Shown: piece by piece, positions 3,900 through 39,620 of the stretch
How the letters are laid out: each line of letters starts with the position of its first letter
How positions within the stretch are numbered: the first letter of the stretch is position 1
NCBI GenBank assembly: GCA_032718475.1
Contig: JAUCBJ010007989.1
Span: forward strand, 1 to 41,870
Length of the DNA: 41,870 nt
Reading direction: 5' to 3'
Origin: Nemertoderma westbladi
Taxonomy: Eukaryota > Animalia > Xenacoelomorpha
The notes under the pieces: model-generated
The model's input: the letters and a program-made list of their open reading frames with translations, nothing else
Databases searched by the model: none
Told to the model about the DNA's origin: nothing
Program-made: the position numbers and the translations under genes

Positions 3900-4391
3900 T
3901 TATATTGTGTGATGGTCGCGTAAACGACCGTAAACACATCTGGCTGTTTGCATAAAAGGGACACCAACTTCCTCCCCAGAGTCCCCCCAATTACGCACCA
4001 TCACCATGGGCTCTCGCTCCTGGTGCTCTATCAAACACCGCACACACATCCCTGTGATTACCCACTCCTGTAGTCGGCATTGCAACTGGCCTTCCCTAAA
4101 GGTGAGAGACTCGGGTCCTGGCATCGGTAGATCGTACCGACAATATGGACACCAGTCGTTCTCCGTCAGCCATGGCTTCATGCAACCCTGGTGGAACACA
4201 TGCTCACAAGGCAACATAAACACCTCACTGTTGGAGTCTATCTCCCCGAGACACAGCTCACACACTCCAGATTCAACCTTGAGTCCGGTATTGAACCGAC
4301 GGAAATCCACTACTCCATCGCCCACACAATCCATGTTGAGGACGGCCAGCACGGACATCACATCGTTCATTTCACAAGGTTTAGACATCAT
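3900..4391 (-). CDS. Intronless RING-H2 (C3H2C3) zinc-finger protein, putative E3 ubiquitin ligase, 163 aa
   Basis: CELC…LPCEHVFHQGCMKPW…CPYCR has all eight RING-H2 ligands plus the conserved Trp and Pro; AATAAA on the - strand at 3790-3795. Confidence 0.75.
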   Translation of the reverse strand: MMSKPCEMNDVMSVLAVLNMDCVGDGVVDFRRFNTGLKVESGVCELCLGEIDSNSEVFMLPCEHVFHQGCMKPWLTENDWCPYCRYDLPMPGPESLTFREGQLQCRLQEWVITGMCVRCLIEHQEREPMVMVRNWGDSGEEVGVPFMQTARCVYGRLRDHHTI

Positions 4392-4439
4392 ATCCTTACA
4401 TTTTGAAATGGGAGGAACTTTATTTTGCTTTAAGTGTTT

Positions 4440-5628
4440 TGTAAAAGCTTTTGTGGGATAACTGATTCGTTTGCTTTGCTAACCAGTTCCCCCCAAGGCG
4501 CTGGAATACTCTAAAAGGGATCTCTAGCTCGAATAGTGCAAGCTACCGGCTGATTGGCTGATTTGCTGTATGAAGGGATCTGGGCTATGTTCGATCGTCC
4601 AACCAGCTTGGGAAGGTTGCCCCATAGCCCTGCTTTCTGTATCTGCCAATAGGATTTGAGTTGGTTTTGATTTTGACCTATCACAGATCTACTGAACTGA
4701 ATTTCCTATCTGTATGCTCATTCTCTGTGGTGAGTGAGATCTTTGTAGAATAGGGGTAGCTGGTATTCTTATAGTTATTGTTATCTTATGGTTTTTAGTG
4801 TTGTTGGTGATTCTAAGCCAGGAAGAACGGCTCTGCCTTACACTAGTAGGCTTAATTATAAGGACATATATCCGTTATCATAACAAAACTGACTGATTGT
4901 CACAACTCATGCAACTCAACATACCATACCTAATCAAACAACCTGTGCATACTTTTATATTGTTATACTGCTATTTACTGTCAGTTCTTCATAATATGGT
5001 TGATGAATTATTATATTTGGAATAACGATAAATAACCCCGAAACCCAATATTCGTGATATACCGAAGGTAAGAGAGAAAGGTTACATATAACGATTGTGA
5101 CTTATGTTAAAGTGGTTTGAAGTGAATCTAATGTTATTTGATAGACCTACATGATTCGGTCCGTGTTCCTTTTATATGTGACTAAAATCAGTGAAGATCG
5201 GCAGATTAGTGTGCAGTATTGTGCAGCATTGTGTATGAGTGAGACTGATAACGAAGCATTTCCTAAAGAATGCGCCATATATGTGAATTATAACTAAGCC
5301 ATATCGTTGTGAGTAGTTTAAGTCATAACTCTGTTTATATAGATAGAGCGCCACGTCCTAAAGGAACTGTTAATATTCCCGAAGGTGAATAATATTGTCA
5401 GAGATTATATAATACGATCAGTCGAATAATACAGTAGGCTTACCTAGCAATACGATTAAGCCGTCGAACCCAATCTCCCGGGTATATCCAGTGGGTGAAT
5501 GATCGCGCACAGATTGGTTTCGACTAGTGTAGTGAATCAAATACTTGTCATAGGCTAAAAGCGAATTATTATCTAGAAGACATCCTAATTTGGCGGGTTA
5601 AACTGCCAAAGGTCTGAAAGCGCGAACA
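4440..5628 (+). repeat. 5' LTR (1189 bp)
   Basis: TGTAAAAGCTTTTGTGGG…GCGCGAACA; matches 15378-16537 with scattered substitutions and small indels. Confidence 0.92.
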
Positions 5629-5639
5629 ATAACGGATAT
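5629..5639 (+). promoter_or_regulatory. Primer-binding-site position; non-tRNA, candidate self-priming site
   Basis: ATAACGGATAT directly follows the LTR's CA, lacks TGG, and is the exact reverse complement of ATATCCGTTAT at 4868-4878 (15783-15793 in the 3' LTR). Confidence 0.6.
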
Positions 5640-5906
5640 TGCTTCTGTATTGCAGTAGGCAATAAAGCTGAAGTACCGGTACCGGCAACCGGTACCCAGT
5701 AGGCCTGACTACATAACCACCCGGACCGGTACCTACAGCAGTACAGGTACAGCAGTATTATTCGATTTTGATTATTATATACCAGTAGGTCTTAATAATT
5801 AATCGGGGACGCCTGGTTTTTATTGGGATTTTACTAGGCCTATTTCTGTCAGTTTTATTTGTTTGTAGGCCAGTATTGAACAGAAGGCGTGTAAGCCTGA
5901 TCATAT

Positions 5907-6485
5907 TGTACAGACAATTTGTAGGCTGAGCTGTTGTCTGATTGTTGTTAAGTCTGAACGGATTGCAGTGTGTGTAGAGCATCTGTCCGATAAAGAACGG
6001 TTAGGAAGTAGGGGCAGCCAATGCTGTAAGGTAAACCCCCATCTAAAGAATAAGTCGTACTACTGAGTTAGAACGCATACTACCTAATCATTTCGGAGTC
6101 TGCATGTCCTGTAGTTTATTTAGGCTTGAGAGTAGTCTGCCATCGTTTAGTCTGTACTTTGTTTGTGTAGTCTGTACAGGTAGCGTATAATATTTATTTA
6201 GATAATTTGTAGGCTGGATAGTTGTCTGGCTGTTATTAGGTCTGAACGGATTGTAGTGTGTGTAGAGCCCCTGTCCGATAAAGAACGGTTAGGAAGTAGG
6301 GGCAGCCAATGCTGTAAGGTAAACCCCCATCTAAAGAATAAGTCGTACTACTGAGTTAGAACGCATACTACCTAATCATTTCGGAGTCTGCATATACCGT
6401 AGTTTGTTTAGGCTTGATAGTAGTCTGTCGGTATTTGGTCTGCATTTTGTTTGAGTAGTTTGTACGCGTAGCGTAATATTTATTA
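5907..6485 (+). repeat. 288-bp tandem duplication; each unit folds as a long G-U-rich RNA hairpin
   Basis: Period of 288 bp; 123-bp cores (5983-6105, 6271-6393) are identical while the flanking arms differ yet stay complementary with G-U pairs. Confidence 0.85.
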
Positions 6486-7420
6486 TTCAGAGTTTATGCG
6501 ATTATCCGCAACATTCATTCCCCAAGCTTGTTCCTACAATAATTGTGTTTGTTATACATACCGCTATAGTTAAATTAACCCCGGTACTACACGGGCTGCT
6601 TGGCATAGGTAAAGACTGGTGATTTTGTGCACCGGTCACTCCAGCAGATGCCGTGGTTCTTTTAGCTGTTCAAGTATATTTAACTACTGATTATATGTTA
6701 TACAAGTACTCGTACCTAATTTAGGGTTTAGTGTACAGTGCTTTCCGAAAGTAATTAGTGTAGACATTATATTTGTGTTGTAAAGTGGTTGATAGGCACG
6801 TTCGATTAGCTCTATTAACTTCTAGGTAGGAACACTCCGTGATACATAACGTAGTACCTATAGCGATACGGCTATAGGTCGTCAGGCGGTGGTATTTTCC
6901 TATCTGGACAACGCAGTGTATTTACTACTACTTATTATTTTCAAATACCGTAGTACCCTGTCCGTTGTAATAACCAGATTTCTAACCCTTTGTTAGGCTG
7001 GTTTGTAGACTTCTTGTAAAATTACCCTGAAAATTCGTATTTTGTGTTTTTGTAAATTTTTGTGTTTATTTAGAGATTGTAATCTCACCCGAATTGTACG
7101 TAATTTGTAGTATTAAGTAACTTAGGTAAATTAGCATTATTTGTTTTAGTGTCCTATAAGTAACACTTCACTGAAAGCGCACCGCTTTGTGTAGTGATTA
7201 CTCCCCAGAAATAATAACATTTATTTCAACATTGACAAAACCCATTAAAACGGGTATATATATATTATAAATCAAATCTAACGATTTATAAATCGTAGGC
7301 CTACCATACAACCATTAGGTCTCAATATCAGTTGGACTACTGCTCAAATAACGGTAATAAAGTAAGTAAAGTAACAAAGTAACCCTAAAATTCAGAAATT
7401 CAATTATTTAAAATAATTGA

Positions 7421-7670
7421 TATACCGGTATTTACGATAGGCCTATTATCTTTATTTCTATAAATCTAGGCTGAAATTATACCGGTACTTGTAATTAATT
7501 CTATTCCAGAATTATATATACTACAAATTGTAAGCTGTATACCGGTATTCCCGATAGGCCTATTATATATTTATATATATTTGTGCTAAAATTATACCGG
7601 TATTCTGTGATAAACCTAGTCTGTAATAATACTTATATAGCTATATATACTATAAGTATACCGGTATTCT
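7421..7670. repeat. Degenerate array of five TATACCGGTA-containing units, ~55-65 bp apart
   Basis: TATACCGGTA near 7421, 7478, 7538, 7593, 7658; units 1 and 3 continue …CGATAGGCCTATTAT. Confidence 0.7.
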
Positions 7671-7806
7671 AATATATTATATATATATATCACGCTCCAC
7701 TGAGTAGCAGTATCGGTAATTAATTATTAGGCTAACAGTGATACTGACTTACTAGACTTGCTTTAACTGTATTTATAGCCGTAGGCATTCAACTGTGTAA
7801 ACAAAC

Positions 7807-10800
7807 ATGTCTGACACGACCCAATCACTGTCGGATAGTCTCCTAGATAGTGTTAGAATGACTGTTAGACAGTGTCTTAAAAAGATCAGTGACCCAGATC
7901 CAAGTATAGAACATCCTAGATCCAAGTCTAAGTCACCTCCTGCTGTAAGAAAGGCCATCCCTACTGTAGTAATCTCAGACCCTAGGCTAGTCCAACATCG
8001 TAGGTCTATCATCGGCACTCGGGCCCAAGTCAAGCGGGATCAAGAAGCAGCTGTCAAACAGCAGCAACATCCTAGCCAAGAACCTAGTTTTCAGCGGCCC
8101 GATAGCTCCAGTAGTTCGCATACTGATGAGCGGACGCCCGAACGCGGAGCGAAGATGGTGGATAAGGTTTATGATGAGCGGCCAACCTATGAAGAATCAA
8201 CCGACGCCACTTCTTCTCAAGAAGAAAGCGAAGTGACAGCAGAGAAACCGCATAAGAGGGATGCTATTGACATCTATCTGTCAGACTATCAACGCTTTGT
8301 AGGAGATGAAGAGTTGAGGAGAAGGCTGGAGGGGCTTAGCCCTAATAGTGAAGGAACCAAGCTTGTGTTGGATGCCATCGATGCGGAAATGTTAGCGGCG
8401 AACCAGGCTAAATTTGATGAACAACTCCGCATCACACGAGTCCAAGAAGAACAAGTCAAGAAAAAACGTATAGAAGACAGAAAGAAAGCAGCAGTGGTAG
8501 CTGCAGAAGCAGAAAGAAAAGCGGCAGCGGCAGAGGCAGCGGCAGAGGCAAAAGCGGCCGAAGCTGAAAGAAAAGCGGCAGCGGCAGCGGCAGCGGCAGA
8601 AGCAAAAGCGGCCGAAGCTGAAAGAAAGGCGGCCGAGGCTGAAAGAAAAGCCGCAGAGGCAGCGGCAGCGGCAGAAGCAAAAGCGGCCGAAGCTGAAAGA
8701 AAGGCGGCCGAGGCTGAAAGAAAGGCCGCAGAGGCAGTGGCAGATGCCGAACGGAGAGCGACTGAAGAAACCATCCAATTAGAATTGGAAAATATTCAGG
8801 AGAATCAAGACTGCATAAATAAACAGTTAACAGCTAGTAATATGCAGATGATGAATCGATCTACTCCCAAAAGGCAGGGATATACATCATCTGAGGAAGG
8901 CGATACCACCGATACTGAAGGCAAAGGAAATAGATCTCGTCTAAGCAGACGTAAAAGAACATTCCACCGTCAGAAATTGCCTGATTTGCCTCCAGCTGTT
9001 AGAAGGCAACTAAATAACACCAACTTAGGTAGTACAGAGCCCACAGACCAAATAATTAAAATAGAAAGACTCCCTACTATAGTAGATGAGCCTGAAATAA
9101 TTAGGCCTGTTCTTGAAATCACCCCTTCGGTGATAGACACACCTGTGCTCACTGAAGTTACCTCTAAATTCCCTCTGCATAGCACTAAGCTATCTGTGCC
9201 CAGTAGAACAGCCCATGAGACAGTTCAGGTCCTGGACCCCGAGCGAAATATTCATGATTTGTCGCCCGTTGTCCCTCGTCCGCCCGCTACAACGTTGGCG
9301 ACTCCCGCTTCGGCGGTCGAATGGGTGGATGAGAGATGGCGGGCGATGGATCTCCTGCTCGAGCAGATGCAGGAGACCGTTCAGCAATTCAAGGGCACAG
9401 TAAGGGAAAGTAGGTTAGAGTTGCAAAAGGTGCAGCAAAGTATCGCGTTAGAACGCGATAAATTAGTGAACACACAAAAGGGTATACCACCACCCCCTGT
9501 AACAATGTGTCAACCCGTTAGGTCTGAAGTATCCCATGCGCAAGGTGTGGAGCCTACACGCATCTATACTGCTAGCGAAGTAGAAACTCCTATAGTAAAC
9601 CCTATTAAGGGTAATTATAAACCTGTTGATAATGACATTCCCTATAGACCTGATCATAATCCGAGAAATTTATATACCGATAACTCGATATTAAATAACA
9701 CGATGGCCCAAGAAAGTTTTACACGACAAATGGCTAGAACCGAAGCCCGGCAAGCGGTAAAGGTTGGAGAGATCGTCAAGTTTAATGGAGATGAGATGAA
9801 ATGGTTACCTTTTAATGAATATTATAAAGATAACATACAGGACTCTGTGCTATCCAACGGAGAGAAACTTAGATTTCTCATCGAGTGCTTGGAAGGACCT
9901 CCCAAGTCAATGGCGTTAAAGTTTATTGGACATCCAGACGGATTAAGACAAGTTTGGGATACACTAAACATCAGGTATGGTAATAGGAATAACATAGCTG
10001 GGTATTTGTATGCAAAGTTGGTAGCGCCCCGAAAGTTTATTAGCAGCGGGATTATAGAGTTTTCCGATGAAATTCAGGAGATCTGCAGACAATTAGATTG
10101 GCTAGGTAAGTCTCATGAGTATCAGAGTGCTATGGTTATTAGAGCAGTGGCTTCTACTTTACCGAAGGGTGGAGTAGGTACACGCTGGGACAAGAAAGTG
10201 TTATACATGATGGAACAACAACAACGAGACCCTACCATGACTGATCTCATGACATTCTTGGATGGCGAAGTGAAATTACAGCTCATAAAGCAGTCCAGAG
10301 AGAAGACATCAGAAAACAAGGTAAGTGAGAAACCCGTTTCTAGGAGAAGGGTAACACCAGTATGTTATACCGACGACGGTGAAAGCCAAACTTCTCAAGG
10401 AGAGGACAGCGGGAAAGACACTGACAGATCTTATTATGTCAATAAAATGCCTAAAGATCAGGTAAGTAAATCCAAGTCTCGACCCAATGACAGAAGGGAA
10501 CCGGTACAAAAAACCCTTCCTACGTCTCCTAAAAGAATTCAGGTGAGAAAGCCCGAGGAAAGAACAAGTGTGCACCACATAGCACAGGTTAAAGTAAGTA
10601 ACATCAAGCCGAAATGTGTGCTGTGCGACGGGCCCCACCGTTTAAATGCGTGTGATAAATTCCTGAGGAAATCACTAAAGGATAGACGTGAAGTCATGTG
10701 GGATAAGCGGTTGTGTTATAATTGTCTCAGACGAGGACACCAACGGCGAACCTGTTACTCCGACGCAAGGTGTGCAAAGTGCGGCGCAAAACATCATATC

Positions 10801-12354
10801 TTGTTGCACACGGAATTCGAACGAAACAGCCCGAGTCAAGTAAGTGAGTCCGAACTACATGTCCAATTCAGTGATGTGAACGACACTGATCAATCTGAGA
10901 TGGAAGGATTCTATACGGACGAGTTCTCCGACGAAAACGAATCCTGTTACTTAATAAACACCACCGCAGTGTATCGAGCACTCATGTATGAGAAAGACAC
11001 AGACAGCGACCTCACCCTAACTACTTCAGATCAACAACAATCTTGGAAAGCGCCAACTTCCAATATAGGAATCCGAGAATTTCCTGTAGTCCAGTTACGG
11101 GTCCACGGACCTCAGAAGAGCTATATAGTGAACGCCCTCCTGGACTCCGGTAGCACAGGAACATTCATCGATAAAGAACTAGCCGAAGTCATCTTTGCTG
11201 GACAACCCAAGTTCCGAACCAAGCTAAACATGTCAGGGATCATGCAGGTTTGGAATTCTACTGTAGCTGCCGACTATTATATAGGTGAGTTGTCCACTCC
11301 ACAGGATAAACTAGGAGAACACAGTATAAGGTCAGTCAAAATGGTGGCAATAAAGAACTTCGCTACCACCCAAGTGGAACCTTATAATTGGGACGAAGAT
11401 GATCATGTCCAACAACTTAACATCCCTAGATTTGACACCGATTATCCTGGAGTACAAATATTAATCGGTCAAAACGCGCATGAGGCGCTGGAGACATTAG
11501 AGAAACGACCTACTCAACCGCAACCACTTCAGACCTATGCGGTAAGAACTAGAGTAGGTTGGTACCTTACTGGACCTTCCCGAAGAACGCTCAGAGAAAG
11601 ACTGCTTCAAGATCGCGTCTGCCAGGTGAGTGAATGGGAAGATGATACTAGTGAGGGAGACGACCCAACTGAGGGAACACCATACTCCTCAGATAATGAC
11701 GATATTAGCTCCAATGTAGATCAATGGAGATATTGCCCCAAGAAGTTTAATCCAACTGACATCGCTTCCAGAGGAGCAACTCCTCAAGAACTGACAGATA
11801 CTACAGACCGGTTAGGTGAACCCGACTTCCTGAGTAAGGAGGATGAATGGCCTCCCCATCTTACTCCGACTGAGATTAGACCAGCCAAGGGAGCGGAGAA
11901 AGTCAAACCTAAAACCAGGACGGGTGGATCGGAGTTATTTGAACCCGGGATAGATCTGTCGGTATTACATATTGCCAGGGACGACGCCGTGGATCTGGAC
12001 CTCCCCACCGCGAGTGGATCCTTCATGAAGATCAGAGAGAGCGATTGGAGCTCTGGAACATCAGACGTCTCGCAGGGACTCTCACCTCTCCTGCAGGGAG
12101 CGACGGACCACTATAGCTCCTGGAATCGGCTTTGTAAGGCCGTCGTGTACCTAGAGCGATGTTTCTATCGTCACTATTCCAGGACGAAGAGGAAACCTGG
12201 AATTGTATTCGGGATGCAGCGACTCAATCACCCAGTCGGTCGTTTGTGTTTACCGGAAGGGAATGGAGGACTCTCCGGAAACTGTGGAAGGCAAGATTCT
12301 CTTCCCACGACCACCTCCCTAATCCTTCAAACATCTAGGGACTCCATAACGTAA
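7807..12354 (+). CDS. BEL/Pao Gag-aspartic protease polyprotein lacking RT/RNase H core and integrase, 1515 aa
   Basis: Capsid-like DUF1759-type region (KFNGDEMKWLPF…EKLRFLIECLEG…LNIRYG); three Cys/His knuckles (CVLC…H…C, CYNC…GH…C, CAKC…HH…LH); protease ALLDSGS at ~11143; AVRTRVGWYLTGP; then directly the post-RNase H motifs WRYCPKKFNPTDIASRG and YSSWNRL. Confidence 0.9.
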   Translation: MSDTTQSLSDSLLDSVRMTVRQCLKKISDPDPSIEHPRSKSKSPPAVRKAIPTVVISDPRLVQHRRSIIGTRAQVKRDQEAAVKQQQHPSQEPSFQRPDSSSSSHTDERTPERGAKMVDKVYDERPTYEESTDATSSQEESEVTAEKPHKRDAIDIYLSDYQRFVGDEELRRRLEGLSPNSEGTKLVLDAIDAEMLAANQAKFDEQLRITRVQEEQVKKKRIEDRKKAAVVAAEAERKAAAAEAAAEAKAAEAERKAAAAAAAAEAKAAEAERKAAEAERKAAEAAAAAEAKAAEAERKAAEAERKAAEAVADAERRATEETIQLELENIQENQDCINKQLTASNMQMMNRSTPKRQGYTSSEEGDTTDTEGKGNRSRLSRRKRTFHRQKLPDLPPAVRRQLNNTNLGSTEPTDQIIKIERLPTIVDEPEIIRPVLEITPSVIDTPVLTEVTSKFPLHSTKLSVPSRTAHETVQVLDPERNIHDLSPVVPRPPATTLATPASAVEWVDERWRAMDLLLEQMQETVQQFKGTVRESRLELQKVQQSIALERDKLVNTQKGIPPPPVTMCQPVRSEVSHAQGVEPTRIYTASEVETPIVNPIKGNYKPVDNDIPYRPDHNPRNLYTDNSILNNTMAQESFTRQMARTEARQAVKVGEIVKFNGDEMKWLPFNEYYKDNIQDSVLSNGEKLRFLIECLEGPPKSMALKFIGHPDGLRQVWDTLNIRYGNRNNIAGYLYAKLVAPRKFISSGIIEFSDEIQEICRQLDWLGKSHEYQSAMVIRAVASTLPKGGVGTRWDKKVLYMMEQQQRDPTMTDLMTFLDGEVKLQLIKQSREKTSENKVSEKPVSRRRVTPVCYTDDGESQTSQGEDSGKDTDRSYYVNKMPKDQVSKSKSRPNDRREPVQKTLPTSPKRIQVRKPEERTSVHHIAQVKVSNIKPKCVLCDGPHRLNACDKFLRKSLKDRREVMWDKRLCYNCLRRGHQRRTCYSDARCAKCGAKHHILLHTEFERNSPSQVSESELHVQFSDVNDTDQSEMEGFYTDEFSDENESCYLINTTAVYRALMYEKDTDSDLTLTTSDQQQSWKAPTSNIGIREFPVVQLRVHGPQKSYIVNALLDSGSTGTFIDKELAEVIFAGQPKFRTKLNMSGIMQVWNSTVAADYYIGELSTPQDKLGEHSIRSVKMVAIKNFATTQVEPYNWDEDDHVQQLNIPRFDTDYPGVQILIGQNAHEALETLEKRPTQPQPLQTYAVRTRVGWYLTGPSRRTLRERLLQDRVCQVSEWEDDTSEGDDPTEGTPYSSDNDDISSNVDQWRYCPKKFNPTDIASRGATPQELTDTTDRLGEPDFLSKEDEWPPHLTPTEIRPAKGAEKVKPKTRTGGSELFEPGIDLSVLHIARDDAVDLDLPTASGSFMKIRESDWSSGTSDVSQGLSPLLQGATDHYSSWNRLCKAVVYLERCFYRHYSRTKRKPGIVFGMQRLNHPVGRLCLPEGNGGLSGNCGRQDSLPTTTSLILQTSRDSIT

Positions 12355-12847
12355 CAACATATGGAGTGGGTGTATGACTCTATTATTTTATATTATTTTA
12401 TTATTTTTATCTTTCTGTATGTATTACTATGTAATTTTATTATAATCGTTTTATTTAATTTAGTAGAATATTATTTAGCGATTATTTAGTACTTATATTA
12501 TATTTAGTGCGACGGCAAGAAATAATTCTTTTCCTCTTTCCTTACTGTCCGTATTATATTATAAATACGTAACTACAGTAAGATGACATATCCGTACTTA
12601 TTAAAGTACAATAAAGCCACTACTATATTCAAGTATTATTGGTAGGCAGAGTATTAGGAATGCAAAGTTCAGATCCTCGTGTCTCGGCTAAACCAAGCTC
12701 TGGGTAGACCTTGGAAACGACTTGCCTCTTCACACTGACATTGCTTCATGCGATATTGCTCTCATACCGTATATTAAATAATACATATAGTAGCGTGATG
12801 TCCCTTTAACAGTAGCGTATAACGCAAACTAAATCTGTTAAACCCTT

Positions 12848-13135
12848 TGACCATCTGTAATTCTAGTCGATTAAGATATCGCGGCACCCACCGATATACT
12901 TGAAAGACAAATTCTAGAATCAGTGGTTAACGTCCCCAGACAAGTTCTGGAATAAATCGGTGCCCATCTCAAATATTAATTATTTAATATTTGCAAATCT
13001 AATAAATCAAAATCTGTAAAATTCAGATCCTTCAACAATTCTAGTCAATTAAGATATCGTAGCATTTACCGATATTCTTAAAAAGACAATTGTCATAGAA
13101 TTAAGGATCTTGTGTCCCCAGACATGTTCTAGAAT
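12848..13135 (+). repeat. Diverged ~180-bp duplication; both units form the same stem-loop
   Basis: Shared ATTCTA/TAGAAT, GTC/GAC, TTAAG/CTTRA and ATATCG/CGATAT helices, with different but paired basal stems. Confidence 0.7.
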
Positions 13136-13967
13136 CAAAATATGTCAATTTAATTATCAAATAATAAAATTTCAGGGAATAAATTTAAATTCATGCCTTT
13201 TAATGAATTTAATAAATTGCCATTTTTACGCAATTTATAACATTCCCAAAATTCCATTAATTAATAGATCAAGGGAGCGGAGATTTATCTTATTATGCGT
13301 ATGAGTGTGCGAAAGTCTCCCAAACATAGTCAATAGCCGATAAAATTCATAAAGTCATGTATAAAACAGGACATTGACCATTAAAGAATTACTATTAAAT
13401 AACATCCCAGATCTGTATGCATTGGAATTACCCTAATTCTACCGCTAGCTTTACATAATGTCACCATAGCAACAACCACGCTAGAATTAGAATTGAGTTA
13501 AAAGAACAATAGAAAGCTTGTCCCATTGAATAGCATAGGGAATAAATAGTGCACTGATAGTATCCAAGGATACATAATAATACAGTGACATTCTGGAAGG
13601 CATTGACTAACGGACAAGTGACCCGAGTGTGTGTAATTTGTGACAAGTTGTGTGTGTGGTATTTGTGAGTTTATAGGCGAATGTTACTACTAAGGTGTGT
13701 TTACAGTAGCGAGTCGCAATTGTGAAAGTAACCCTAACTCTCCAGTAAGAACCTGAGGTGTATCTAAGCCTTTGGGACGGACAGTCGAGTGACTTGTACC
13801 GGTTGTCGTTGTCGTTGTGCGGCTACGTCGTTGGCGAAAGTACAGCGGCGACGACACATCGGTGCTGAGGATCTCGCACTGTCCGGGGGCGGATTGGGGT
13901 AGGCAGCGACGCTCGCTAGCCTAAATATAAACTCATTATAATATTAATAAACTCATATATAGCAGAT

Positions 13968-15299
13968 ATGACGGAGTTGATAGAAGATGGTCTTGGTATC
14001 AGGGAGCGATATAATCTACTTTCAAGCGTTTGTTGATAGCTTGATACGCGGTGATACTAGTCCAACTACTACGAAGGATGATGGTTGTTATATCGAACCT
14101 ACGATTTCCTGGAAGTAACTTACGCGTGAATTGGACTATGGAAAATTCACCGCTCGCTACACGCATTGTAATGGTATGTATATGGACTTCTTAACCATTG
14201 GCCATTCTATCGATTTACACGATACGGACTATGTCGAACATATCCTACCCAGAGGAGTCGAAACGATAAACCAAAATTCTAATGCGAAAATCCTATTCGA
14301 AATCGACTCGAAAGAAAAGACATTAAAGAAACAAATAAACGCGGTAACTCCAACATATATTTGGAATTCTTGATAGAAGCATTGTAACAACAAATAAATA
14401 TCATCCGCGTTTCCCCTACAAGACGTGCGTCTTTGGTATTATTACGATAAATGCCCTAGACCAACCAACAAACGGAAAGACATGAACACCAGTGGAGACG
14501 TTGCTTTGAACGCGGTTTGCTCGCTGTGTTTGCGGGAGTTTCGGGAGAAACTTGTTCGATGTGTTACCCACGCTCTCTCGACTCAGGCGATCCTTGAGTA
14601 GACCTATGATCTGAGTTCCGGAATGCTCGGTCAGACCTCCTCATTCCTTAGTTAGACCTCAGACTCTTGATCCTAACAGTATCACGGATTATCACGAACT
14701 GTACTTACCGTTCAGAGATCCAGTGTTACCCGAACCGTTAGTCGGTGGCACTCAGGTTGTGGGCTCCCTAAATATCCGCCCATCTTACCTGGCCGGATTG
14801 GGGCACGGGCACCCGATATCGCCATTCAATCGTATAATCGGAATCGTTCCCGTTTAACACGATACCACCTGTCATCAAGGTGGAGGAGAGCGTTGTACGA
14901 AAAGAGATAGACGCTATTCTACAAAGATCAGAAAAGAAATCTACGTTTGCTCAGATAAACCTAAATTATAACAGCAAGTCCAAGCGGTAAACGGATTGGC
15001 TTTATCCCAGTTCGATTGGGAAATCCATAGTCTCTAAGACGATATTGAACTTAGACGACCCTATTCTCGGCGAGAGTTTTAGACGAACGTATCCAACGAT
15101 GAGCGGAGGAAAATATCGAGGAGAACATATTGAAACGGCGGATACCCCGACTATAATCCCACGCCTTCTGATGCAATCATATTGCACCCTTCACCCAGGA
15201 GTTATAGCCCTCCTTGTAAAGTGGCTCGCCCCAAAGAGAAAAAGGACTCTGGCTAGCTTTAAAAAACTGCGTAAACGCCGTCCGCGCAAGAAAGACTAA
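13968..15299 (+). pseudogene. Possible decayed second ORF of unknown function inside the BEL element
   Basis: Consecutive long + strand reading segments (including 14131-14373 and 15045-15299) broken by a few stops and frameshifts; basic C-terminal tail; no family recognised. Confidence 0.35.
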
Positions 15300-15369
15300 C
15301 TGTTTAGAGTATTTATGTATATTAGAAATTGTGATTTTGTATATTTTATAGACTTAAATCCCATTTTCT

Positions 15370-15377
15370 GGGAGCGG
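15370..15377 (+). promoter_or_regulatory. Polypurine-tract-like sequence GGGAGCGG
   Basis: Directly precedes the TG of the 3' LTR. Confidence 0.6.
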
Positions 15378-16537
15378 TGTAAAAGCTTTTGTGGGATAAC
15401 TGATTCGTTTGCCTTGCTAACCAGTTCCCCCCAGGCGCTGGAATACTCTAAAAAGGGATCTATAACTCGAATAGTGCAAGCTACCGGCTGATTGGCTGAT
15501 TTGCTGTGCGAAGGGATCTGGGCTACGTTTGATCGTCCAACCAGCTTGGGAAGGTTGCCCCACAGCCCTGCTTTCTGTATCTGCCAATAGGATTTGAGTT
15601 GGTTTTGATTTCGACCTATCACAGATCTACTGAACTGAATTTTCCTATCTGTATGCTCATTCTCTGTGGTGGGTGGAAGCTTTTGTAAATAAGGTTATTC
15701 TTATCAGTTTTTAGTGTTGTTGGTGATTCTAAGCCAGAAGAACGGCTCTGCCTTACACTAGTAGGCTTAATTATAAGGACATATATCCGTTATCATAACA
15801 AAACTGACTGATTGTCACAACTCATGCAACTCAACATACCTAATCAAACACTGTGCATACTTTATATTGTTATACTGCTATTTACTGTTGGTCCTTCATA
15901 ATATGGTTGATGAATTATTATATTTGGAATAACGATAAATAACCCCGAAACCCAATATTCTTGATATACCGAAGGTAAGAGAGAAAGGTTACATATAACG
16001 ATTGTGACTTATGTTAAAGTGGTTTGAATTGAATCTAATGTTATTTGATAGACCCTACATGAGTCAGTCTATGTTCCTTTTATATGTGGCTAAAATCAGT
16101 GAAGATCGGCAGATCAGTGTGCAGTATTGTGCAGCATTGTGTATGAGTGAGACTGATAACGAAGCATTTCCTAAAGAATGCACCATATATGTGAATTATA
16201 ACTAAGCCATATCGTTGTGAGTAGTTTAAGTCATAACTCTGTTTATATAGATAGAGCGCCACGTCCTAAAGGAACTGTTAATATTCCCCGAAGGTGAATA
16301 ATATTGTCAGAGATTATATAATACTGTCAGTCGAATAATACATTAGGCTTACATAGCAATACGATTAAGCCGTCGAACCCAATCTCCCGGGTATATCCAG
16401 CGGGTGAATGATCGCGCACAGATTGGTTTCGACTAGTGTAGTGAATAAAATACTTGTCATAGGCTAAAAGTGATTTATTATCTAGAAGACATCCTAATTT
16501 GGCGGGTTAAACTGCCAAAGGTCTAAAAGCGCGAACA
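15378..16537 (+). repeat. 3' LTR (1160 bp)
   Basis: Direct repeat of 4440-5628 with TGT…ACA termini. Confidence 0.92.
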
Positions 16538-18048
16538 CCCTTAGTTTGTAGGCTATAGATGATTGACATTTCTAGCAATGTTCTTAACATAGGCATTTTA
16601 CTGGAAGTTATTAATACCATAGTTTACCCCAAAAAAACTAAAATTACCCAAATCGCACCAAATCAAAATAAATCTTATAACAGCAACACAGGCTATCTGA
16701 CGATATGGATTAGATCAATGTAGCGGATAGTGACCATTGAAGGGCTTCTTATGCATGCAAAGGAAAATATGATCAGACCCAAATCACACAGTCAGACCTG
16801 ATCTTTTGCTGATCAAATACCGGTAGGTGACTTTGCTGATATGCAGTAACATTTTACGGTACAATTTGATGCGAAAATGTTTTGGCCAGTACTCTGAACC
16901 TTCCAGTGGGGTCTCAGGTCACGCGCGTACCGTGGTCACTGTATCTAGCACCTGATTGGTTCAAATATTCAAACACTGAAAACTTACATAGGCCTTGACA
17001 ATTAGTGATAAGATTTTATGCAAATATGTTTTGGATGGTGTTCTGAATCTCGCGTTGAGGTCCCAAGTCACCCCCATACCGTGGTCATCAGATACGGCGC
17101 CTGATTGGCTAATTCTTTGAACGACGATAACTCGAGTTTGTTTCACTTTGGGATGAAGTTTGAAAGCTAAGAATATTCTCTGGAGTATTCCCTAACTCAC
17201 TGACGATGTTTTATAGCTGTTGGATTGTCGGGTTTTGCTATGTGGTCTATGATTGGTAAATTTTTTGAAAGGCTATATCTCAAGAAGTATTCACTTTGGA
17301 ATGATGAAGTTTATTTTTAAATGTTCTCTAGAGTGTTTCCGATCCCACTAAAGACATCCAATTGCTGTATGACTACCGGTTTCACGCTTTTGATTGTTTG
17401 AATATGCTTGAAAATTTTGCATATAATATATCAAGAAGAATTAATTTTTGCACAAGGAAATAATACTTACAATGCTCTCTGACATGTCTGGTGTATTTTA
17501 AAATCACATCAAATTTTGAACAATTGTAATTGTAATTAATACACCTTCATAATTTCAGTCCCTAGTTACCCAACCCCAGCTTATAGTATATGGTTGCCCC
17601 CGACCCTTCCACCCCCAAATACCAACCCATGTTTCATTTAACATATATTTACAATAACTAATTGTTGTGGAATACTGTATATATTATTATTGATGACTAC
17701 AGTCCCAATCCCAATAAACATTAACTTGGTCGTTTTGGCGGCCAAAATGACCAAAATCACCAAAAAAATGTAGTGTATTCCTATGGGCTACTTGGTCGTT
17801 TTGGCGAAGCGATTTAACTCGAATCAGCTAAGTCCAGACATTCAGTCTCCTTGGCCATCCATTTGGTGGATCTGACTAAATGTCGGCTCGCTTTCATTTT
17901 TATTATTGACAGATTGTTAACTTACCCGGCGCTGAGCCTTGCAGTACTGGAGTCCGCCCACTGAGGCATTGATAGAGTACAGTATACAGTCTTATAAAAG
18001 GAGTTGAATGGGGCTTCGTTAAAGGAGGAGTATGTATAATAATCTGAA

Positions 18049-19967: not shown

Positions 19968-20961
19968 ATATATGCATTATACAGTATATAATGCAGCTGC
20001 AATAAAGCAAGCCGAGAGTAGTAGTAGTATAGTAATCATCGCCAACAGGCAAACAGGCTAGCTGCAGTCGATTTAAGACCTCACAAAAACACATTCTGGA
20101 GGTCTAGAATACAGTATATGTGCCATAAAGGTATTGTATCACTCAGGAAGAAAGGATTATAAACAACGTAATGGCTGACGATTTTCATTTCAGACATTTC
20201 TAGAATGTTATCATTTCATCCCACTAGCAGTAAACTACAGTATGAGAACTGCCGAGGGATTACGTTCCCAACAAAGACGCAGTCTATGGATGGACTACGG
20301 TCGAGCATGTTTATCTGCCAAGTTTCAGCTCGAACGGATTAAACAAGAAATAACGAAATGAGAGAAGGTTTTCACTTTCAGACATTTCGACCTATAGTGG
20401 CAAACTGTAGAAGTGTAGATTGTGTACGTCCCACAAATAAGCAGTCAGTTTTCTAGCACATACAGTATATACAGTATATGTCGCTGATTTAATTTCCGAT
20501 GTCAGTTTTGATTTTTAGTTGAATTTTGTCTGTCTATCTCTCAGTTTGGCTGTCTGTTTTGTCGGTCTTTTTGTCTGTCCGAATGCCTGTCAACATACAA
20601 AAACAACACATTCTAGATAACATTTTCATTATGGGTTTTCGGGGTCGCTGATTTCATTTCCGGTGTCAGTTTTGATGTTCGGCAAAATCTAGTCTGTCTG
20701 TTTAAGTCGGGAAAAACATTTTTTTGGGGAAAATAATGTTAATCAGATTTTTATGGAAACATTCTGTGTAGTATCGTATAAGTTCATACGCCCGACGCCC
20801 GCTAGGCGGCGTATATATATATATATATATACTTACTTCTATACTTACCGGTCGCTTTTATTCAGGGCATGATTACTGACCTTGGTGATTATATTATACC
20901 AGTATACAGACCGCCAGACAACCTTAGTCTGCAACCAGCACGCCCTCGTTATGATCAGTCA

Positions 20962-20970
20962 TGGCGCAGT
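20962..20970 (+). promoter_or_regulatory. tRNA primer-binding site, probably tRNA-Ser
   Basis: TGGCGCAGT directly after the LTR-terminal CA; TGG is complementary to the tRNA CCA end. Confidence 0.65.
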
Positions 20971-21038
20971 GCTAGATACGACCTAACCCATCCTTACTAC
21001 ACTAGGAACTCAATACTCTATTGCCAACACCTGCAAAC

Positions 21039-24000
21039 ATGTCCGACCACCGCGATCCGCGCACATTTATGTTAAGAGGAAGCGCTCCCCTGTTCGACGT
21101 TGAGACAGAGCGCCTCACCTGGGCGTTATGGCGCGACGAGTGGGAGGCCTTCTTCATCACCTCCGGCCTTGAGAACCTCTACGAGGCCGACCCCGCCGCC
21201 CAACCGGATCCCGCCCTCACGGCTGTCCTCCTCTGCGCCACCCAGCGACAGCGACGAGCCACCCTCACGACCGCCTTCACGCGCGCCACCAACGCCGTGG
21301 TCAAGGGACTCGCCCTCACACCGGAGGAGAACTGTAATGCCACAACTGTCATTGATCGCCTGGAGATCCATATTGACGGCCAGAAACTCTCCCGTCGCCA
21401 ACGTCTCCCCGAGGAAACCCCGGAGACATTCCTCGTCCACCTCCACGATCTCGCCACCAAGTGCTGGTATATGTAGCCCTCTCCACTGCGGAGGCGCACC
21501 TTAACGACCGGTTGCTCGACCAGTTCGTGGTGGGGTTTAATGACCGCGAGGTGACGGAGCAACTCCTCTGCCTCGAGAACGGAGCAACCCTCGCCGACGC
21601 TCTCAAGTGGGCCCAGTCCGTCTGGACGGCTTGGAAGGACGCCGCCTCCTTCAACGTCACCACCCCAGCGGCCACCGCATCCAGCAGCATGGCGAGCCAC
21701 CCCGCTCCGACGCCGGGAGGCCGGTGCACCCACAACCGCCGCAACCAGTCGCAACCGCCAACCCTCTGCCCCTAGTGCGGATACAAGCCTCACCCGGCCG
21801 GAAAACGTGCCTGGGAGTGCGAAGGCAACGTGCCGCCACTGCGGAATTGCCGGGCACTACGACTGGATGTGCCCCTCCAACTCCGACGAACCGCGCACCC
21901 ACGCAGCTACCGGTCCCGATGACGACTTCTACACCACGGCAAACTGCGCCGAGGTGTGGTCCATCCTGGCGGGTGCCAAACTGGAAGACGCCCCCATCGT
22001 CTCGGCCATCGAGTCCCTGGAGCCTCTGGAAACCGTCACCGTCGGGTTCCAGGTGACTAAGAACCCGAACTTCGGGATCGCCGCGGCTGATTTCCTACCC
22101 GACTTCGGAGCGAACATCACCGCGCTCCCGCTCCCCATCATCATCCGGACCACCAAACCACCCCCCAAAGCGCCGCGGCTGGCCAACGGGTGCCACTCCG
22201 GGTGGACAGTGATCGGGATCTTCACTGCAACCCTCCAGTGCCCCGCCCTCCACACCGCCTGCACCACGGATGTGTGGGTCATCGATGGGCTGCAACAGCC
22301 GCTACTCTCGAGGAAGGCCTGTTTCCTGCTGGCCATCCTGCAGAGCCCAATCCTCCGTGGCGGCCGCTACTCCGATGGCCCACCTCCGCCCCCCGGCCGC
22401 ACCCCATGGTCCTACCAGGTGGTCGCGCCCCTGCTACCAGCACCTACGGAGGAAGCAACCCCGTCACCAACAACTTCACCGCCCATAACACACACCACCA
22501 ACACCCCAGAGTGGGCCGCCCTACAACAGCGTTTCCCCCGCCCCCTATCGGGGAAATGCCGAGTAATGTCCGGGGGGGGGGGGGGGATATTACAATTAAA
22601 CTCCACCCGGGTGCCCGGCCCACCAACTCCTATGCGAACCACGCCATCCCCATCAACCTCGAGGCCGCCTTCAACCACGAGCTGGATGAGCAGGTCGCTA
22701 TGGGTATCCTCGAGCCTGCCGCGGACGAGCGGAACCCCGGCGAGTGGCTCAGCCCCATTGTGGTGACCAAGAAGAAGGACGCCACCAAGGTGCGGATCAC
22801 AGTGGCGACCTCCGGGAACTTAACAAGGCCACCGTGTGTCCCACCTACTACTCCGCTGCTCCCTTCCAGGTCGTCTCCCCGATCCCAACGTCCGCCCGCG
22901 TCTTCTCAGTGCTCGACGGCCTCAAGGGCTTCCACCAGGTCGGGTTGGACCCCTCCAGTCGCCGACTGACCACCTTCGTGACGCCATGAGGTCGGTTCTG
23001 CTACCGCCGGATGCCGATGGGGTGGCACGGTAGCTCTGATGTCTTCAACGCCCGGATGGATAAAGCCCTCCGAGGAATCCCCAACATCGGGAGGATCGTT
23101 GAAGACATCATCATCAACACGGGCACAGCGGAGGAGCACTCCAAGGCAGTGGCCCGTGTCCTGGCCGCCTGCGACGTCTCGTCGATCTCGATTAACACGG
23201 CCAAGGTCCAGTTTAAACAGGCCGACGTCCGGTTCGGCGGCTACCTGGTCTCCCACAGCCGCTACCGGATCGACCCGGTCCTCTCCGACGACCTCCGCCA
23301 CTTCCCAGTCCCGACGAACCGCCATCAGCTCCGCTCGTTCCTCGGACTCGCTCAGCAGCTCGGGAACTCGACTGCGGAGATAACCCGTCTAGTCGACCCA
23401 CTCCGCTCCCTGAACTCGAACTTTAACTCCTGGGTCTGGCTCCCCCAACACCAGGCTGCGTTCGAGACGACTCGGTCAACTCTGTCGAGTCCGCACTACC
23501 TGTCGGGGTTCCACCCGGACCGCCGAACCGAGCTGCTGACGGACGCCTACAGACTGATCCGGCCTCGGGTTTCTGCTCCGCCAGTGGGACTCTGACGCCA
23601 ACCGTTGGTGCACCATACAGTGCGGTTCGCGCACCCTGGCCACACACGAGGCCAACTGGTCGGGGAGGGTGGAACTGGAGGCCCTCGGCGCTGCGTGGGC
23701 GGCAAACAAGTGCTGCTACTTCCTCGACGGGCTCCACCACTTCGAGCTCGTCACGGACAGCAGCCCGCTGATTCCCATCCTGAACGACTGCCGGTTGGAC
23801 CAGGTCAGCAACGATCGGCTGCTAAAGTTGAAGACGCTGATGTCGCGATTCAATTTTACTGCCAGCCACCAGCGCGGCAGTAAACACGCAATCGCCAATG
23901 CCTTCTCCCACGCCCCTCGGAACTCCCCAACCTCCGACGACATCCTCCTCACCCCGGAGGACGACGCCTATCGGGAGTTTATCGTCTCCACGGCCGTCGC

Positions 24001-25445
24001 CTCGTCCGCCGCCACCCCATCGGTCGAATCTCGGGACGCCCAGCTCGACCAAATCCGGGAGGCTGGGCAGCGCGACCCCATGTACCGCGCACTTCTCGCC
24101 AGGCCGACGTCCAAACACAACATTACCGACGACCAGCTGCAGCCCTACTTCCCGTTCCGCTCGGAGCTGATGGTTCACGACGGCATCATTCTCCATGGGC
24201 CCCAGCTCTACATCCCTGTCGAACTCCGTCCCGAAACGCTCTGGCTACTCCACGCCGCCCACCAGGGACTAACTAAAACTCGGGAGAGGGCGTGTCGCTC
24301 CGTCTGGTGGCCGTCCATACCCAACGATGTGAAGCAGGCGGTGGAGCACTGCCAACCCTGCCAGGCAGCCCTCCCATCGCACCCACCCGAGCCACTCCAG
24401 CGGAACCCGGACGCCACCCGTCCATTTCAACGAGTTCACACTGACATCTTCGACAAGGACGGCACCAACTACCTCGTCGTGACGGACGAGTTCACCGGCT
24501 GGCCCACCCTCTACAAACTCGGCCAGAACTCCACATCGCCGATTATAATAGACTCTGCCTCCCTGCCTCTTCTTGGCCACAGCCGTCCCGACCGTCATCT
24601 GTCCGGACAACGGGCCCCAGCTGGTGTCTGACGCCATCCGGACCTTCCTATCCGACTGGGGTGTCCAACTCGAGCCCTCTACGCCCTACCTTCCCCACAC
24701 CAACGGCCGCACCGAAGCGGCCATCAAGGCACTGAAGAAGTTGGTCCGCAGGGCGCGCCACAACTCCGATGAGATCGCCAAGGGCATCCTGGCCTTCCGT
24801 AACACCTCGCGCTATGGCGGCCGCTCCCCGGCTGAACTTCTATACGGCCATAACGTCCGGGAGGCCCTACCCGTCCACTTCACAGCGGTTGACGCCAAGT
24901 GGCGAAATACCTTCTCGGACCTTGACGCCACATCCGCAAACAACCAGAACCGTATCATGGCTAACTACGACCACCACACTCGTAGCCTCAAGACTATGCC
25001 GGTTGGGACACCAGTCCTCATCCAGGACCCGGCTACTAAACTCTGGACGGGCCAGGGCACCATAGTGGAGGGCCTCCCCAACCACGACTACCTGGTCCGA
25101 CAGACAAGCGGCCGCGTACTCCGCCGGAACCGAGTCCTACTCTGGCAGCGCCACCTCACCCCAGAGTGCGCCACCCCGACCCCACTAGTACTACAACCTG
25201 ACCCCCATCAGCCCGAGCCACTGCTAAAGCCCGCTGCACCGGCAACACCACAACCTTCTTGGGCCGAAGTCGCCACCAGGCCACCGCCACCACCAGGCCA
25301 AGTCGCTACCAGGCCACTGCCACCCCCAGACCCTGTTACCGCATTGCCAACGGAAACCCAGACACGATCTGGGAAAGTGGTAAAACCACCGGCACGTTAC
25401 TCGAATAGCGAGTACGTCAAACCCGCCAGACTAGCCCCGCAATAA
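21039..25445 (+). pseudogene. Frameshifted gag-pol of the Mag-like element
   Basis: Gag (DRLLDQFVVG; CRHCGIAGHYDWMC), degenerate protease (PDFGANIT), RT (WLSPIVVTKK, LDGLKGFHQV, MPMG, VEDII in place of YxDD), RNase H (ELEALGAAWA, VTDSSPL), integrase (HAAH…CQPC, HTDIF, PDNGPQ, NGRTE), split over several frames. Confidence 0.88.
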
Positions 25446-25581
25446 CTATAATACATTAGTATTAAATATACATATTAATACATTAATAATATCATAACTC
25501 CAACCGCACCCCACCCAAGAGGGGGTATGTGTAGTATCGTATAAGATCATACGCCTGACGCCCGCTAGGTGGCGTATATAT

Positions 25582-27211
25582 CTTAAACAAGATTGGGTAG
25601 CCTACACGGGTACAAATGGACTATGTCGCCGATGCGTGGTAGGAGGACATAGAATCAAAGAATGTAGGGAAACACCAATAAAACACGGTGAGGCAGATGG
25701 AAGTAGAAGCCAAACGATGGCGACAAGCACCACGGGAGCGAAGAGAATGGGAATGGTACTACTCGGGGTGGTACCGGTGAGGATAATAGGAGAGAGCGGG
25801 CGGTCAGTCACGACGTTAATGCTGGTCGACAGTGGGGCAGCGTTCACACTAGTGGAAAATTGGGTGGCCGAAGAGATAGGGTTGCAGACGAAGCCAAGCA
25901 AAATGGCAGTAACTACTATCTCGAGTAAGGATGAGGTCTTGGAGATGAGAACGGGACGTTGCGAAATATCAGCGATAGCACCAGGGTGCAATTATGGGGC
26001 GACCATCGACCCCATCCAAATAATAGAATCGATTAATATAAACGCCAGGCGGCCCACAAGGATCGAGGATGAGCAACACCGGTTCCTGGACGAAATTGAT
26101 TTCTCAGTACCTGAACTGGACGTCTCGAAGGTATCTCTCATAGTCGGCATGGACTGCCCAACGGCCCAAGAGAGACCATGGACCATATTCGGAGGGGATA
26201 GAGAGTGAAATCCGATGGCGATTCTTACGCCATTCGGATGGACACTTAGCAGCCCGATCAAGACCAAGATCCCAGTCAGCGTGTCGGAATCCTTAGGGTG
26301 CATGTTCGCGGGCACAATGAGAGAGATGGAGGATGAAGGAGCAGAGGAGCAACTTAAGAGGCTGCTGCGGCAGGACTTCGAGGGATTAAAGGAGACCGGG
26401 GTCGGGACCTCGGTGGAGGGCAAACAGGCGCTGGAGAGTGTGAAGAACTCGATGAAGTGTGAAGGGGGGCGGTATACGATAGGGATGGTGTGGAAACAAC
26501 CAAGGTTACTGCTACCAGACAATAAAGGGATGGTCCTGATGAGGCTTCAAAAACTGAAGCAGACGCTCAGACGGAGCCCCGAGAAGGATGAATACATCCA
26601 TAGAACTACATCCAGGCGGCCCACAAGGATCGAGGATGAGCAATACCGGTTCCTGGACGAAATTGATTTCTCAGTACCTGAACTGGACGTCTCGAAGGTA
26701 TCTCTCATAGTTGACATGGACTGCCCAACGGCCCAAGAGAGACCACGGACCATATTCGGAGGGGATAGAGAGTGAAATCCGATGGCGATTCTTACGCCAT
26801 TCGGATGGACACTTAGCAGCCCGATCAAGACCAAGATCCCAGTCAGCGTGTCGGAATCCTTAGGGTGCATGTTCGTGGGCACAATGAGAGAGATGGAGGA
26901 TGAAGGAGCAGAGGAGCAACTTAAGAGGCTGCTGCGGCAGGACTTCGAGGGATTAAAGGAGACCGGGGTCGGGACCTCGGTGGAGGACAAACAGGCGCTG
27001 GAGAGTGTGAAGAACTCGATGAAGTGTGAAGGGGGGCGGTATACGATAGGGATGGTGTGGAAACAACCAAAGTTACTGCTACCAGACAATAAAGGGATGG
27101 TCCTGATGAGGCTTCAAAAACTGAAGCAGACGCTCAGACGGAGCCCCGAGAAGGATGAATACAACCATAGAACGATTAAGAAATATGTGGATAAAGGGTG
27201 GGCCGTGGAGT
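25582..27211 (+). pseudogene. BEL/Pao fragment (knuckle, protease, start of RT region) with a 567-bp tandem duplication
   Basis: CRRCVVGGHRIKEC, MLVDSGAAFTLV, AILTPFGWTL, GRYTIGMVWK…LPDN; repeat units start at 26045 and 26612. Confidence 0.85.
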
Positions 27212-38639: not shown

Positions 38640-39620
38640 CAAAGAATGGTACCAAGATACAGTATATGTATGGAGAGGCGGTTTTATTTCAAGGTCTTGA
38701 GCCAGCTGTGTATCTATGAAGGAAGAATTGGACTGTTCATCAAGTATGGCATATGTTCTTATTGAACCCTTAAATGTTGTCGGAGATTCCACATCAACTA
38801 AAAACACCTAGCTGCAACTTTTAAAGTTATTGCCACGAATTTGTGTGCAAGAGATATTGTACTTTTGATTCAATTCATTTGAATTTTGGGGATAATTTCT
38901 TTCAGTTGTGCGAGAAGTAGTGTTCAATTTTATGGTGTCACCCGGACATACAGTAGTAACGTGGTCAGTTGATTTACACTTCTTGCATTGACTTGTTAGT
39001 CTACATTGTGACCCTGAAGAATGTTTTCCGGTGCATTTGAAACAAAGATTTTCGCTTCTAAGGAATGCTATTTTTTCTCGATGTGCAATTGGGTTGAAAT
39101 CGTGACATTCATTGAGACTGTGTCCTGAACGACTATGAAAAATGCAATGAGTTGTATATCTTGAATTACGTTGGATTGGTTAGTGTTATGCGGTGGTTGA
39201 TAAGTATTAAAGCGTCTCGTTGGAAAATCCAATTGATTATTATTTCCATTAAAATGATGTCGAGAAACTTGAGTTGAAATATAATTTCCCTTGTTATAGG
39301 CCTAGTTGTGAAGATGGTCTAATCTGGGTTCGAGTTGGTCATATTCATCTGTAATTGGTTTGTATTTTGGGTTATATTTACTATGAGAGATACGATGTAA
39401 GAAGTCACAAAAATATGAAAATGGAGGATGTTGGTAATATTGTTCTTCATAAAGTAAACCTCGATCAATCCATTTGTTGTCTAACCAACTGGGCAGTTTT
39501 TGTCTGATCAATCTAAGACCTGTTGAAAGATTAAACTCATGGAGTTCAGGCAAGTGATCCACGTTTACGGCTAGGACACGGCAAATATCGCTGAGATCAC
39601 GAAGTCGAGATGGAGGTAAC
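38640..39620 (-). pseudogene. Old BEL/Pao gag-protease remnant
   Basis: KLPSWLDNKW…PPFSYFCDFL; CIFH…HSLNEC; LCFKC…H…C; TYAILDEQSNSSFID; stops and frameshifts. Confidence 0.8.

Follow-up and report, generated by a model that had tools for sequence, protein, structure and literature searches.

How does a BEL/Pao retrotransposon without a tRNA-type primer-binding site (PBS) begin reverse transcription? The question is raised by an LTR element in a 41,870-nucleotide stretch of DNA from Nemertoderma westbladi (the window; coordinates refer to it, and features lie on its plus strand unless otherwise stated). According to the ICTV, BEL/Pao elements are primed by a host tRNA at an 18-base PBS, and their replication is poorly understood (PMC8742986). 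A sequence-only reading of the locus had proposed that this element primes itself, the 11 bases directly behind its 5′ LTR (5629-5639) being the exact reverse complement of 4868-4878 inside that LTR. We found the match exactly as described: it begins at the LTR boundary (offset 0), covers 11 bases with no extension on either side, and the LTR partner, here called the predicted self-primer, is kept in the 3′ LTR at 15783-15793. The TGG of a tRNA-type site is likewise absent, as had been claimed: none occurs between 5629 and 5813 (185 bases), the first being at 5814. The earlier, rough estimate of chance was below 1e-3. The 11-mer appeared in 15 of 20,000 dinucleotide-shuffled LTRs (about 7e-4) and in 44 of 20,000 when offsets of 0-5 were allowed; as a background, the LTR holds a complement to 27 of 39,418 11-mers taken from the window. 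Two further features were not significant, namely extension of the duplex upstream of the 11-mer (1015 of 2000 random 12-mers were equally good) and a hairpin formed locally across the primer (337 of 2000). The window contains no tRNA genes.

The 5′ LTR occupies 4440-5628 (1189 bases) and the 3′ LTR 15378-16537 (1160 bases, with AATAAA at 16444). Both have TG...CA ends, and they align with 1121 matches, 33 mismatches and 41 gap columns (K2P 0.029). The stretch was also found in six public runs from four studies, always as contigs; none is recorded as RNA, and the run termed X5 is RNA only by guess. Other copies show the same ends of the 5′ LTR, as does a contig from run X4 that is likely an empty site, and two X4 contigs diverge at 5628 into unrelated DNA, giving independent support for the LTR end. 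An earlier end, at a TGG at 5591, was rejected because the alignment with the 3′ LTR continues through 5628. The X4 empty-site contig covers the flank up to 4439 and then runs into other sequence; since the flank is present there without the LTR, the insertion is likely to be polymorphic. The flanks (4435-4439 and 16538-16542) share no target-site duplication of 4, 5 or 6 bases, a sign that two copies may have recombined, that a deletion may have occurred nearby or that the assembly may have been joined here. Next to the 5′ LTR, on the minus strand, lies a RING-H2 finger frame free of introns (3900-4439; PF13639, E 7.9e-13). Behind the PBS lies a long leader (5640-7809) in which a 276-base repeat is present twice (5912-6475), and Rfam gave no matches in 4400-7900. 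At the other end, the 3′ internal region (12355-15359) gave no integrase match; it includes a series of short open frames before the 3′ LTR (14119-15299) that may be a decayed extra gene, four of which were tested and matched no Pfam family. A polypurine-tract-like run (15370-15377), with similar runs in relatives, adjoins the 3′ LTR.

The open frame at 7810-12354 (1514 codons) encodes a BEL-type Gag with two zinc knuckles, a protease and a C-terminal remnant of RNase H. It includes DUF1759 (PF03564; 9781-10164, E 2.1e-11), a protease DSG motif (11143-11151) in a region that aligns with BEL proteases, and the remnant itself (11710-11853), which was matched by 14 of 27 full-length queries (best E 8e-8). 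Full-length relatives carry about 550 extra residues, comprising RT and most of RNase H, ahead of the position of this remnant. Neither an RT motif nor an integrase was found within the element by a motif check and by comparison with full-length BEL queries, and of the ordered RT, RNase H and integrase of BEL/Pao elements the RNase H C-terminus is all that is left. The element resembles Belpaoviridae (PMC8742986) in having LTRs of 0.2-1.2 kb, a DUF1759 Gag, zinc knuckles, a protease and a polypurine tract, and differs from them in having no tRNA-complementary PBS, RT, most of RNase H or integrase; the TG...CA ends also fit BEL/Pao, whereas the missing target-site duplication does not. All five hits of a protein search carry both PF05380, the Pao marker, and PF03564. 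By its coding content, the element is therefore a non-autonomous, strongly diverged BEL/Pao derivative rather than an intact member. The sequence-only reading was right about the family, to judge from the Gag and protease, but had missed the non-autonomy. Having no RT or integrase of its own, and little of RNase H, the element would obtain these enzymes from another, intact one.

No close protein relative was found, identities being 20-31% in one search and 24-45% in another. The named relatives are from a ribbon worm (Tubulanus polymorphus) and sea urchins (Diadema), which would make the Sailor lineage a plausible home for the element; Sailor (Sinbad, Sparrow, Surcouf) is the dominant BEL/Pao group in molluscs, according to the accessible part of PMC6238403. 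The N-terminal region of Gag contains an Ala/Glu/Lys/Arg-rich repeat of 21-33-base units (8446-8778). Elsewhere in the window, at about 20765-25581, a neighbouring LTR element carries the usual TGG site behind its LTR and is followed by BEL fragments at 25603-27213; BEL gag fragments also lie on the minus strand at 31159-31929 and 38682-39604.

The sequence-only reading had suggested asking whether the PBS and its LTR partner co-vary among related elements. Relatives were collected with an alignment of 18 full-length BEL proteins picked among the matches to this element, a choice that tilts the sample to the element's own neighbourhood. The search gave 101 loci: metagenome contigs contributed 80, taken from 551 confirmed there, and genome contigs another 21. 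In viral contigs, the BEL profile gave no confirmed loci. A repeat with its 3′ end inside the contig was present in 19 of the 101, and three of these were dropped (L038, in which the repeat ran into the ORF; L076, with 46 bases at a contig end; and L094, with 65% identity). In 13 of the remaining 16, the PBS had a match of 10-15 bases in the element's own LTR, starting 0-4 bases from the LTR end. The match was contiguous in four (L003, L048, L075 and L081), whereas in nine (L002, L004, L013, L015, L018, L057, L087, L097 and L100) it spanned a GT-AG junction, the predicted introns having a GT(A/G)AG donor and a pyrimidine-AG acceptor. For 12 of the 13, between 0 and 9 of 300 shuffled PBS controls did as well. 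When each PBS was compared with the LTRs of other families, a score of at least 10 was reached by 8 of 272 pairs, six of them among L004, L013 and L018, which share a primer, so that the primers comprise about 11 different sequences, every one of which fits the LTR of its own element. Co-variation was thus borne out, with own-LTR matches in 13 of 16 against 8 of 272 across families. The expectation that relatives would lack a normal TGG site was borne out less completely: two of the 16 (L095 and L099) carry tRNA-type TGG sites with self-match scores of 4 each, and L046 is ambiguous. The LTR end had been shifted by hand by 10 bases in L015, which was scored only then, and by one base in L013. 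As judged from these sequences, the complementarity is real and part of a lineage-wide pattern.

The base following the primer is C in nine of the 13 relatives as well as in this element, and CA follows in six of the 13; the CATA at 4879-4882 is accordingly a candidate cut-site context here. Extension of the duplex upstream was notable only in L004 (8 of 500) and L048 (16 of 500) among 12 relatives. For this element, the best primer across a splice junction had 10 bases (34 of 300 shuffles) and was rejected as poorer than the contiguous 11. The LTRs of L003, L015 and L100 end in TA or AA rather than CA. The 21 loci L081-L101 come from genomes filed as bacterial or archaeal, and most are likely to be animal DNA binned into metagenome-assembled genomes. 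One of them, L095, is found in a Wolbachia chromosome record of 1.44 Mb (NZ_OU909470.1, locus 9461-15440). This BEL element is complete, with its TGG site, a target-site duplication of 5 bases and two LTRs, and its presence there may be explained by a mis-assembly, by a genuine insertion or by Wolbachia DNA that has entered the nucleus of the host.

In a quick tree, the element stood outside the group of self-complementary relatives, without a firm position. A mixture-model tree (24 rows, 565 columns), from which L013, L015 and L035 were omitted because the anchor motif was missing, placed it with these relatives (85/84, unstarred) on a long branch, and it is likely, on sequence grounds, to be kin to them. 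Spliced and contiguous primer types did not cluster on either tree.

The public runs showed how the two sites vary within the element's own family. Run X1 alone has 12,294 contigs on 4300-5905, which indicates a large and varied family; depth is not copy number. At the PBS, the depth units that differ at 5629 number 210,545 of 421,428 in X1 and 88,673 of 255,722 in X3; for 5633, the figures are 134,419 of 297,434 and 88,594 of 197,703, respectively. The two changes occur together, as the near-equal X3 depths (88,673 and 88,594) and a single X5 contig with both indicate, and thus define a second PBS type. The partner changes then expected in the LTR, at 4878 and 4874, were fixed before the LTR-site data were viewed. 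One of the two was seen among the loose ends listed: the predicted base at 4878 opens a loose end in X3 (2 contigs). Four of the 25 records listed stop at 4877. In X5, the PBS is mostly of the second type, yet the single contig at the LTR site is of this copy's type; the PBS and LTR sites are unlinked in these data.

The same contigs revealed a conserved island at 4837-4879, common to subfamilies whose flanking LTR sequences are unrelated, which ends one base past the 11-mer. In X1, depth is about 496,000 at 4855-4864, against 2,800 at 4815-4829 and 1,550 at 4895-4919; this peak inside the island is partly due to short overlapping contigs, while the island edges are not. On the 3′ side, loose ends begin behind 4877 or 4879 in X1, X3 and X5. 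A 22-base pattern of the island had no matches in metagenome contigs and viral contigs.

The 5′ edge of the island has a character of its own. A pyrimidine run followed by AG is the signature of a 3′ splice site. In other subfamilies, such a motif immediately precedes the island, where it corresponds to 4834-4835; of the 5′-side loose ends listed, six of seven are pyrimidine runs with AG at this place, and the AG at 4834-4835 is also present in most of the depth of this copy's own subfamily. In this copy, the predicted 3′ splice site would be the T-run plus AG at 4792-4798. A search for a conserved donor gave nothing convincing; the candidate GTGAGT at 4730 was rejected, being private to this 5′ LTR, with a variant at 4733 in all covering depth in X1 and X3. 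Both LTRs share a strong motif of donor type (at 5068 in the 5′ LTR); together with a motif near 5576 that resembles an acceptor, it could delimit a second LTR intron downstream of the primer, a reading to which no contig joint lends support.

We consider it likely that, in some form, self-priming operates in the lineage that includes this element (probability about 0.8). This agrees with the sequence-only reading in the family-specific, lineage-wide complementarity of PBS and LTR; it departs from it in that a transcript starting at 4868, which that reading had held to be needed, is probably not required. In the nine junction relatives, a GT-AG intron must be removed before the primer exists, so these primers cannot be the first bases of an unspliced transcript. 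Together with the conserved 3′ splice-site signature just upstream, they indicate that the primer is probably internal rather than the 11 bases with which the RNA begins. It would not have to lie at the cap, since only a cut at its 3′ end is needed for priming. That the primer lies, more specifically, within a 5′ leader that is likely spliced is a proposal to which we give even odds. A start upstream of 4868 is favoured, because the junction relatives need an upstream exon and because three relatives (L075, L087 and L015) have TATA-like boxes at least 120 bases upstream, counted from the primer or donor.

Under the internal-primer proposal, the RNA would start upstream in the LTR and lose an intron whose 3′ border is the conserved AG. 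The bases 4868-4878 would then fold onto 5629-5639, and the RNase H of a helper element would cut behind 4878 in the way described for Tf1, so that a 3′ end would remain on the PBS, from which RT would copy U5 and R back to 4879 before jumping to the 3′ LTR. The PBS would be re-copied from the primer in each cycle, and primer and PBS would therefore stay matched. In retroviruses, the PBS is re-copied from the tRNA. A PBS that is the complement of a spliced junction is what would be expected from such re-copying, and this is the strongest argument for a role in priming.

The alternatives differ in where the transcript starts and in what the pairing is for. One is a mechanism strictly like that of Tf1, with a start at about 4868, the first 11 bases as primer, and the upstream AG active only in the 3′ LTR or never. 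The length of 11 bases is the same as in Tf1 (PMC7175516, in its accessible part), the island begins about 30 bases upstream, as a core promoter might, and in an RNA starting at 4868 the duplex of PBS and primer is present in the unconstrained best fold with a pair probability of about 0.99. Folding favours the duplex for RNA starts at 4850-4868, whereas for unspliced starts at 4836 or further upstream its probability is at most 0.03, and it costs 2.1-9.0 kcal/mol for unspliced starts from 4836 to 4680; long-range folds of this size are weak evidence. The earlier claim about the start site thus retains the support of folding, but has the upstream 3′ splice-site signature against it, since the 5′ edge of the island, where a promoter would begin, coincides with the pyrimidine-run-plus-AG motifs. 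There is also no TATA box at -30; the sole TATAA upstream of 5087 is at 4857-4861, only 11 bases before 4868, which is too close, as had been noted before. With the junction-spanning primers of nine relatives also against it, we regard the strict Tf1 mechanism as rather unlikely here. The TATAA, which lies inside the conserved island, might instead be a true TATA box with a start near 4885, in which case the RNA would contain the 11-mer in its 3′ LTR alone, with the primer coming from there or from a second RNA. Conservation ends at 4879, short of such a start, and cutting the 3′ copy would destroy the U3 template unless a second RNA were used; a start near 4885 therefore appears decidedly improbable.

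The pairing might, on the other hand, serve leader structure, packaging, dimerisation or a translation switch, while a host RNA, such as a fragment of a tRNA, acts as primer. Ty1/copia lineages include elements primed by half-tRNAs (PMC6317226, in its accessible part). Against such a role, the paired bases lie at an offset of 0-4 in the element and the 13 positive relatives (about 11 sequences), at the site that a primer would have to occupy, and neither relative with a TGG site matches itself; we think it improbable. Coincidence, or an inverted copy made once in an element since decayed, would be a further explanation: an event of 7e-4 can occur when many LTR ends are scanned, and this copy is degenerate and without a target-site duplication. 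Conservation of the site across the family contradicts this, as do own-LTR matches far above the cross-family ones in relatives, and chance is hardly credible as the explanation.

How, then, does the element compare with known self-priming systems? In Tf1, RNase H makes the primer by cutting between bases 11 and 12 (PMC7175516 and PMC5341516, accessible parts). As partial accounts of Tf1/Tf2 of Schizosaccharomyces pombe, Tf1/sushi and Tcn1 describe, these elements have no tRNA PBS, and 11 bases beside the 5′ LTR pair with the LTR; the element likewise has an LTR-adjacent PBS complementary to about 11 LTR bases. Its proteins are BEL-type and not those of Ty3/gypsy chromoviruses, to which Tf1/sushi belong, and it lacks its own RT. 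It differs from Tf1 also in the placement of the primer, which is separated from the PBS by 750 bases and is likely to be internal to the transcript, downstream of a splice site, while in nine relatives the primer exists only across a predicted splice junction. The accessible part of PMC6317226 gives self-priming as described for Tf1/sushi and as predicted for Tcn1 and for the copia elements TAR, Houba and Osr-1. For the three copia elements, as here, self-priming is predicted from sequence outside Tf1/sushi; they belong to another superfamily and host kingdom, and that part of the source mentions no splice-dependent primer. The accessible portions of four BEL surveys (PMC3118150, PMC554778, PMC6238403 and PMC8556966) mention neither PBS nor tRNA. 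In agreement with the sequence-only reading, we found no report of self-priming in BEL/Pao in the literature searched, a scope that lay outside subscription journals, Repbase and GyDB.

Taken at its widest, the proposal is that, in a large clade of BEL/Pao elements of marine invertebrates, tRNA priming has been replaced by an internal self-primer that in most families is made by splicing of the LTR, so that splicing would license reverse transcription, and that the high-copy, non-autonomous family studied here keeps the splice site with the primer just downstream. We put this slightly on the better side of even. If true, it would extend self-priming to a third LTR superfamily, and an internal or splicing-made primer would be a new way of starting reverse transcription. 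It would also account for BEL elements annotated without a PBS and provide a simple rule for locating LTR ends. The finding bears on the question of whether tRNA priming or self-priming arose first, which is discussed in the accessible part of PMC3601003. For the BEL elements themselves, it would mean that replication is tied to the RNA processing of the host.
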